A DNA stretch of 64,000 nt, from NCBI RefSeq assembly GCF_003334785.1, contig NZ_QOWV01000005.1. One strand, given 5' to 3'. Source of the stretch: Escherichia coli. Lineage in GTDB: Bacteria > Pseudomonadota > Gammaproteobacteria > Enterobacterales > Enterobacteriaceae. The position numbers are program-made. Within the stretch, counting starts at the first letter, position 1, and the number at the start of each line of letters is the position of its first letter. Positions 1 through 3,000 of the stretch are shown here, piece by piece.

Positions 1-3000
1 ATGGCAGATGTGCAGGAAGAAGGCAAGCCGCAGCTGTGGAACCATAAACAAAATGATGCTTTAGGTCTTTACCTTGATCTCCTTATACAAGCAATCAACA
101 CTGGTACTATTAACGCTGAAGATTGGCAAAAAGGTGACCGATTAAAGTCGGTTGCGCTGCTGATTGCTTATCTGGATAAAGCCAATTTCTATGTTATGGA
201 AGATTCCTGAGCATGGGAAGAAGATGCCCGATTAAACACATCTTCCGTTGCACTGGTGACCTCTGGACTGGAACGTTTGTCAAACCTACTCTCGAAGAAA
301 GACTCTGTTTTTGTCTCTGATTTACTACGCGAAGCTAAAGTCAATGAACTGGATGAAACTCTTTCAACAACGAGGTTGAACCACCTCATAGATAAAGGTT
401 ATGAAAGAATAACGTTACAGCTTGATTTAGGGGGAGAATCCCCAGGTTATCTGGAAAAAGATAAACATTACAGAGAAGCCGATGCGGCTTTACTTAATGT
501 TATTTATCCTACAAATCTTTCAAAGATAAACACCAGAAGAAAAGAGCAAGTTCTAAAAATAGTTAAAAAACTAGCAGGTCCGTATGGTATAAAAAGATAC
601 GAGAAGGATAATTATCAGTCGGCAAATTTTTGGTTCAATGATATTAAAACCGATACCGATCAAAATTCGCATGCAAAAAGAGAAAAGAGCTTCATTCCAT
701 CAACAGAAGCAGAATGGTTTTTTGACTCATGGTATGCAAAATCAGCAGCAATTGTTTATAAAGAATCAAGAAAAGAAGAGTATTTGAATGACTCAGTACA
801 ATTTATGAATAGATCATTGGCCCAAATAACAGGCGAGAATATGATTGGTGCAAATGGCAGGAGCGTACCAGAAATGGCACTTCCCGAAAGCTATAACTAT
901 ATCCACAAGTCGGGAACTTTGCATGAAGCGCCAAGCCCTATCATTCCGCTAAATTGGTCGAAAGCTTCAATGACTCTCATGTTGAAAGAGATGTCCAACC
1001 TTATCAATGATGAGGGAATTAAATAGTTTTCATAATGAGTTACAGCACAACGTTGGGTATTGACTGAGCAAGATGAACGACAAGGACAACGACATCAGCC
1101 TTATGAGGAGCAAGAAAATGAAAGCAAATTCGAAAACGATCAGAAGGATGAAAGTTAATGTTCGGTCTGAGGAAAGTAAATCGAAACACTCATACGTTTG
1201 AAACCACTTTTCAAAATTGGAAAGAAAATGGCGAAGATGTTGCATTATTAATGCCCGAATTTAGTGCTAAATGGCTACCGATAGCAGAAGAGAGTGGCAG
1301 CTGGTCTGGATGGGTATTGCTTGGAGAAATATTTCCCTTAATTTCATCTGAGCTCGCTGGGATGGCTTTAATGCCAGAAACGGAAAGGTTAATAGGGGAA
1401 TGCCTCAGTTTATCCAGTTCCCCGTTAAATCTAAAGCATCCTGAACTAAAATATAATCGTTTGCGCGTAGGTAAAGTATTTGATGGAGTATTGAGCCCTG
1501 CTCAACCACTAATAAGAATATGGACAGGGGAATTGAATCTTTGGTTAGATAAAGTCACAGTCTGCCAATACGGAAACGCTCCAGCGTTAGACAAAAAATC
1601 GTTATATTGCTCCATTCATTTTGTAATTGGATTTAGTAAAACATGTTACAGAAGTCTTGTTGATATTGAAGTTGGTGATGTTTTATTAATCTCAAATAAT
1701 TTGGCTTATGCGGTTATTTATAATACAAAAATTTGTGATTTAATTTATCCAGAGGAGTTAAAAATGGCTGATCATTTTGAGTACGAGGAAGATTTTGAAA
1801 CAGATGATTTTGATATCAAAAAAAACGAGAGTGAGATTTATGATGAAAATGACGATCAGATGATTAATAGTTTTGAAGACTTGCCTGTAAAAATTGAGTT
1901 TGTTCTTGGTAAGAAAATAATGAATCTATATGAAATAGACGAACTCTGTGCAAAAAGAATAATATCTCTGCTTTCTGAATCTGAGAAAAATATAGAAATA
2001 CGTGTAAATGGCGCGCTAACTGGCTATGGCGAACTTGTTGAAGTGGATGATAAATTGGGCGTAGAGATTCATTCTTGGTTATCAGGGCATAATAATGTCA
2101 AATAGCATTTCGCTGATAGCTATACTATCATTATTTACACTATTGCCGTTTATAATAGCATCCGGGACATATTTTATTAAATTCTCGATTGTTTTTGTTA
2201 TTGTCCGAAACGCGCTGGGGCTTCAGCAAGTGCCATCAAATATGACACTTAATGGGGTTGCTTTGCTATTGTCAATGTTTGTAATGATGCCGGTTGGGAA
2301 GGAAATATATTATAACAGTCAGAATGAGAATCTTTCATTCAATAATGTAGCGTCGGTTGTTAATTTTGTTGAGACAGGCATGAGTGGTTATAAATCATAT
2401 TTGATAAAATATTCCGAACCGGAGTTGGTTAACTTTTTTGAAAAGATTCAGAAGGTGAATAGCTCTGAAGACAATGAAGAGATATTCGATGATGATAATA
2501 TTTCAATTTTCTCGTTACTCCCGGCATATGCGTTGAGTGAGATAAAAAGTGCATTTATTATAGGTTTTTATATCTATTTACCCTTTGTTGTAGTGGATCT
2601 GGTTATATCCAGCGTTCTGTTAACGTTAGGTATGATGATGATGAGTCCGGTAACCATATCTACACCGATAAAATTAATTTTGTTTGTCGCGATGGACGGT
2701 TGGACAATGTTATCAAAAGGACTCATTTTACAATATTTTGACCTATCCATTAATCCCTGAGGAAAAAATATGGACGATATTGTTTTTGCAGGGAATAGGG
2801 CGCTGTATCTGATTTTAGTTATGTCTGCAGGACCTATCGCAGTTGCGACATTTGTTGGTTTATTAGTAGGGCTTTTTCAAACGGTAACACAGTTGCAAGA
2901 ACAGACGTTGCCATTTGGCGTGAAATTATTATGCGTAAGTATTTGCTTTTTTTTAATGAGCGGATGGTATGGCGAAAAATTATATTCTTTTGGTATTGAA

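Follow-up and report, generated by a model that had tools for sequence, protein, structure and literature searches.

The first 1,026 nucleotides of the 64,000-nucleotide stretch of Escherichia coli DNA analysed here (contig NZ_QOWV01000005.1 of assembly GCF_003334785.1; hereafter the window) almost certainly represent the 3' two-thirds of a single gene, ygeQ (alias pkgA; b2863 in K-12 and ECs3736 in Sakai), which has been split by a nonsense mutation and is a pseudogene. A sequence-only reading of the window had proposed that the two ORFs found there are either one SctP-like gene in the eivJ position, cut by a nonsense mutation, or a tight junction of an SctO-like and an SctP-like gene. The first proposal was right about the mechanism, since intact alleles carry a sense codon, GGA (Gly265), in place of the TGA and encode one continuous protein of 536 amino acids, but the SctP identity did not hold. 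The second is refuted by the same continuous orthologues and by the lack of similarity of the ORFs to EivI and EivJ.

Identity of the Two ORFs

The two ORFs occupy the same reading frame and are listed, together with the neighbouring features, in Table 1. A reading-frame check bore out that only a single TGA and 15 sense codons lie between them, as had been noted earlier. The ATG at 1-3 marks the edge of the window and is no real start, base 1 being codon 196 of a 536-codon gene. The earlier observation that no convincing Shine-Dalgarno sequence precedes GTG 256 was also confirmed, the energy of the duplex with the anti-Shine-Dalgarno sequence being +1.2 kcal/mol. For TTG 277, which PGAP chose as the start, this energy is -3.9 kcal/mol, i.e., a weak Shine-Dalgarno-like match on a whole-window background with a mean of -1.8 kcal/mol, in which 18% of positions lie at -4 or lower.

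Table 1. Positions in the window of the ygeQ/pkgA fragments and of adjacent features
Feature	Position	Strand	Remark
ORF, frame 1, open from base 1 to TGA 208-210	1..210	+	Cut by window edge
ygeQ/pkgA codons 196-264	1..207	+	3' part of N-terminal fragment; start 585 bases upstream of window
Premature stop, TGA for GGA (Gly265)	208..210	+	G-to-T transversion at base 208
15 in-frame sense codons, residues 266-280	211..255	+	After the stop, before the earliest possible restart
Codons of invariant W267-E268-E269	214-222	+	Downstream of the stop, upstream of both candidate restarts
ORF of 256 codons, GTG start	256..1026	+	Same frame as ORF 1..210; native stop TAG 1024-1026
ygeQ/pkgA residues 281-536 and TAG	256..1026	+	C-terminal fragment; PGAP: from TTG 277, "hypothetical protein" WP_000067509.1
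Junction of ~8.7-kb deletion	1039..1040		Similarity to ygeQ 3'-flank ends at 1039, resumes inside eivJ at 1040
eivJ (SpaN/SctP) remnant, last 39 codons and stop	1039..1158	+	37/39 identical to EivJ 151-189, E=4e-25
epaO (SctQ/SpaO homologue)	1118..2105	+	+1 A insertion at 1192 relative to the intact O157-like allele; PGAP "frameshifted"

The region 1..1160 was detected by megablast in 3725 of the 5426 complete E. coli genomes, always on the chromosome, with a DNA identity to the window of 96-100% in the listed matches and of at least 95% in all but three of the 3725 genomes. The annotation in these relatives takes one of two forms, "ygeQ: protein YgeQ" followed by a "hypothetical protein", or one undivided "glycoside hydrolase family 15 protein" (GH15). 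The near-identical, colinear DNA, with a tRNA-Gly gene upstream and ETT2 genes downstream, places the gene of the window in the E. coli ygeQ/pkgA orthologue group. Strain A134_1EC shows 100% identity to the window in this region; its ygeQ begins 585 bases before window base 1, just downstream of the tRNA-Gly gene and actS, and terminates with the TGA. This tRNA-Gly gene is glyU according to the ETT2 literature (PMC11068852; PMC3977695). That literature also places ECs3736/pkgA, equated with B2863, at one end of ETT2 and calls it a homologue of "phosphorylase kinase and glucoamylase" (PMC3977695). The translation of 1..207 is identical to the matching part of the 264-amino acid "protein YgeQ" (WP_000676919.1) of A134_1EC and K-12-type strains. 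Strain 30COLEC, 99.3% identical and with the same flanks, possesses a single CDS of 1611 bases encoding a GH15 protein of 536 amino acids (WP_000676921.1), and ORF 1..207 of the window aligns to residues 196-264 of this intact protein.

A direct comparison with the proteins suggested earlier gave no similarity for either ORF. ORF 1..207 yielded no BLASTP alignment with EivI (SctO) at E<=100, while ORF 256..1023 matched EivJ of an intact ETT2 only at E=33 and had no SctP match in NCBIfam. Two separate functional genes meeting at a tight junction, whether SctO-like and SctP-like or any other independent pair, would agree with the two separate CDSs annotated by PGAP in genomes with the TGA. However, the first ORF is unlike EivI, no ribosome-binding site precedes GTG 256, the orthologues with GGA encode one continuous protein, and all 29 homologues aligned (see below) run through the site, which is flanked on either side by invariant residues, so that we consider such a pair of genes extremely unlikely.

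The Deletion That Joins ygeQ to eivJ

In an O157-like genome that retains the eiv genes the order is ygeQ, ortT, eivF, eivG (sctC), eivE, eivA (sctV), eivC (sctN), eivI, a small ORF, eivJ, and epaO. In the window, ygeQ adjoins epaO because a deletion of ~8.7 kb took out ortT, eivF, eivG, eivE, eivA, eivC, eivI, the small ORF, and the first 150 codons of eivJ. The sequence AATGA occurs on either side of the junction 1039|1040 as a short stretch of homology. This microhomology gives partial matches in undeleted genomes and, consequently, only matches covering at least 80% of the query were counted in a search with a 54-mer across the junction, which was found in 1941 of the 5426 complete E. coli genomes. 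A right-end ETT2 deletion isoform of 8.74 kb that matches this junction has been described for APEC (PMC11068852).

What remains of eivJ is labelled "SpaN/EivJ family... missing N-terminus" by PGAP, and its position bears directly on the proposal of a single SctP-like needle-length gene made up of the two ORFs. They do lie directly upstream of epaO, where intact ETT2 clusters have eivJ, and they are truly one gene cut by a nonsense codon, but the true eivJ remnant sits next to them (Table 1), the second ORF does not resemble EivJ, the region is annotated as GH15/ygeQ in thousands of genomes, and its predicted fold is a GH15-like (alpha/alpha)6 barrel. An SctP-like identity of the two ORFs is, therefore, refuted.

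Family Assignment and Predicted Fold

The product of ygeQ/pkgA is, by its predicted fold, a GH15-like (alpha/alpha)6-barrel protein of clan GH-L. The intact allele has a weak but significant match to Pfam family PF00723 over residues 94-417 (E=1.5e-4), and many of its homologues carry precomputed PF00723 matches. In NCBIfam only a sub-threshold hit was obtained, to the oligosaccharide amylase model TIGR01577 (15 bits vs. a cutoff of 820.7), and a sequence search of the PDB with the single intact protein returned no match. An AlphaFold2 (AF2) model calculated on a 29-sequence alignment is helix-rich, with a mean pLDDT of 89.5 and a pTM of 0.90. Its best PDB neighbours in Foldseek are the glucoamylase-like domains of the beta and alpha subunits of human phosphorylase kinase (PhK; E ~1e-10 to 1e-9), followed by the "Glycosidase" 5z3a/7c24, presumably a bacterial GH15 enzyme (TM 0.69, target-normalised), and the glucoamylases 1ayx, 2vn4, and 1dog. 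At the sequence level the PhK subunits were reached only with the family profile, as the search of the PDB with the single protein was empty; this profile matches PhK alpha at E=2e-7, with "dsGaWEEe..lNtSS" aligned to "dfGIWERg..LNASS".

A search with the intact protein gave 259 homologues. The best 120 of these 259 are mostly 470-610 amino acids long and come from E. albertii, Yersinia enterocolitica, Commensalibacter, Elusimicrobiota, Bifidobacterium, Bdellovibrionales, and others. Four residues, G265, W267, E268, and E269, are invariant in the alignment of 29 homologues, whose identity to the E. coli protein is 38-76%, and none of the 29 shows a break at the position of Gly265, all being continuous. 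The stop thus replaces an invariant glycine within the most conserved motif of the family, (M)EDSG-A-WEE. The G-x-W-E-E motif probably holds the glutamate that acts as the catalytic acid in GH15 enzymes and, by motif resemblance, E268 is the putative counterpart of this residue, Glu179 of Aspergillus glucoamylase.

The N-terminus of intact YgeQ/PkgA (L002 3416-3490, upstream of the window) reads MKGKSALTLLLAGIFSCGTCQA. As judged by eye, it resembles a signal peptide of the Sec type, perhaps including a lipobox-like cysteine, and several distant homologues have lipoprotein-like N-termini. The family is widespread among the bacteria in the homologue hit list, and no link with type III secretion (T3SS) was seen among them. 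Passages in two earlier papers mention a speculation that pkgA encodes an ETT2 effector (PMC3977695; PMC2808357). The Sec-like N-terminus and the spread of the family without a link to T3SS make a poor fit with this suggestion.

The Nonsense Codon and Its Probable Consequences

A four-way DNA alignment revealed GGA at codon 265 in the non-TGA alleles of 30COLEC and CEC13004, and TGA in the window and in A134_1EC. The frequency of both alleles was determined with 55-mers centred on base 208, whereby every 28-base megablast seed was forced across that base. The T allele occurs in 945 of the 5426 complete E. coli genomes (~17%, about a sixth), K-12 derivatives and NCTC86 among them; 2392 genomes carry the G allele. 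The presence of the identical TGA in 945 independent complete genomes means that the split arrangement is not a product of chance or of a sequencing error. In the K-12 reference genome, ygeQ is annotated as ending at this very stop. The split gene is an ordinary nonsense pseudogene, already known, within an island undergoing decay. Those T-allele sequences that were inspected are practically the same (~100% identity), and there is accordingly no secondary decay among them that would prove relaxed selection.

We propose the following explanation. In this lineage, a G-to-T change at base 208 turned the invariant Gly265 codon GGA into TGA. Translation that begins at the true start, which lies outside the window on its 5' side, would end after residue 264 and yield the N-terminal region and about half of the barrel, while the downstream ORF of 256 codons is probably an untranslated remainder that is, at best, poorly re-initiated. 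The stop interrupts the G-x-W-E-E motif itself, with the W-E-E codons falling between the stop and any restart; neither fragment can carry them and, hence, no combination of fragments is expected to rebuild an active enzyme. Judging from the sequence, the enzymatic function has probably been lost and the second ORF is probably not translated. The RefSeq/PGAP annotation speaks against a pseudogene in so far as it sets no pseudogene flag and lists a "protein YgeQ" and a separate "hypothetical protein", so that some expression of the fragments is conceivable.

It could also be argued that the split gene is still functional, with both fragments produced (the second from GTG 256 or TTG 277) and assembling, or with the fragment of 264 amino acids having a function of its own. 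In favour of this are the 945 genomes with the T allele, which make it a common one, the 256 codons over which the downstream ORF has stayed open, the weak Shine-Dalgarno-like match at TTG 277, and the name, "protein YgeQ", that RefSeq gives to the fragment. However, an open downstream frame is to be expected for a recent mutation, in line with the ~100% identity of the T-allele sequences, and all sequence 3' of base 552 has also disappeared from the K-12-type strains, with no sign of constraint. Since the invariant W267-E268-E269 is missing from both fragments and what is predicted to be a single (alpha/alpha)6 barrel is cut mid-way, we regard a functional split enzyme as improbable, and a gene that is still functional in either form as very unlikely. 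A more specific variant, in which the 264-amino acid fragment with its putative Sec signal is produced, either alone or beside a re-initiated C-terminal piece, and has a residual non-catalytic role, e.g., in carbohydrate binding, is given very little credence by us; if true, such a role would explain why the T allele is found in ~17% of the complete E. coli genomes.

Programmed recoding, in which TGA 208-210 is read as selenocysteine or is efficiently read through so that the full-length protein is formed, was also considered. No stop codon in E. coli is leakier than UGA, and the downstream frame has been preserved, both of which would fit with recoding. However, the homologues have an invariant glycine at this site, never cysteine or selenocysteine, and near-cognate read-through would put tryptophan, cysteine, or arginine in the place of this glycine. 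Furthermore, the bases downstream of the TGA match those of the GGA allele of 30COLEC, which implies that no recoding signal has evolved. An Rfam scan of 1..1300 detected no SECIS or other RNA family, the only hit being a chance match to an sRNA (E=0.15), and the predicted RNA fold of 205..270 (66 nt) is no better than that of shuffled sequences (z=0.08). The probability of recoding is, in our view, negligible. As a candidate selenoprotein gene, ygeQ was rejected on the lack of a SECIS, the z of 0.08, and the invariant glycine in place of cysteine or selenocysteine.

Probable Order of Decay and Other ETT2 Genes

The loss of ygeQ can be placed in a sequence of decay steps. K-12-type strains carry the same TGA and have lost everything 3' of window base 552 up to orgA through a deletion adjacent to an IS2 element, while A134_1EC has the same IS2 in orgA without an adjacent deletion. 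Strain 30COLEC has the eiv deletion, yet GGA at codon 265, and the eiv deletion, therefore, probably preceded the nonsense mutation, which would in turn have been followed by the IS2-adjacent deletion in K-12. Such nested decay steps are consistent with the "widespread mutational attrition" of ETT2 that a 2004 paper by Ren et al. names in its title (cited in PMC3977695).

The configuration of the mobile elements varies among these genomes. In strain g74, a K-12-type strain (L005 3277-4884), IS2 abuts ygeQ at base 552 and is directly followed by the 3' part of orgA, so that epaO to eprK have been removed. The window (orgA at 8575-9156, ygeH at 11648-13024) is without the IS2 in orgA and the IS3 in ygeH that are both present in the 99.9% identical A134_1EC, and ygeH is a continuous ORF of 458 amino acids in the window.

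Several other ETT2 genes in the window are disrupted as well. The native frame of epaO, from ATG 1118, stops at 1201. The epaO ORF noted earlier, which starts at ATG 1158 and has a fair Shine-Dalgarno sequence (-5.5 kcal/mol), is the post-frameshift frame, and ATG 1158 could yield an EpaO of 315 amino acids with a different N-terminus. The gene epaS (SctU/SpaS; 3808-4928) is split into the overlapping ORFs 3808..4539 and 4536..4928 and is annotated as "frameshifted" by PGAP in near-identical genomes. According to the annotation of a near-identical strain, further ETT2 pseudogenes are situated at ~10026-10658, 10677-11179, and 14077-14566; an internal stop interrupts a ygeK-like LuxR regulator, and frameshifts affect an iagB-like lytic transglycosylase and ygeF.

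Implications for Annotation

The biological weight of the split of ygeQ is small, as it forms one more case of the published mutational attrition of ETT2. It does hold a lesson for annotation: a position beside epaO is no proof of the identity of a gene, and was misleading here because the 8.7-kb deletion brought an unrelated gene to epaO. Furthermore, RefSeq lists the two halves of ygeQ as separate proteins instead of as one pseudogene with an internal stop.

Comparison with Known Systems

With EivJ/SpaN/InvJ (SctP) and EivI/InvI (SctO) the two ORFs share their position upstream of epaO only, without any sequence similarity. Solved GH15-like structures are only remotely similar to YgeQ (11-18% identity), but the predicted (alpha/alpha)6 barrel is common to the GH15 glucoamylases and glucodextranases and to the corresponding domains of PhK alpha and beta, and PhK alpha also shares the G-x-W-E and NxSS motifs with YgeQ. 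Within E. coli, ygeQ of K-12 (b2863), pkgA of Sakai (ECs3736-ECs3737), and EC042_3075 of EAEC 042 represent the same locus, by glyU at the end of ETT2. The O157-type gene has GGA at the codon in question, yet is broken by a frameshift elsewhere, whereas the gene is intact in EAEC 042 and 30COLEC. The window carries exactly the TGA allele of K-12 but, in contrast to K-12, where the C-terminal ORF has been truncated by the IS2-adjacent deletion, it keeps the whole of this ORF.
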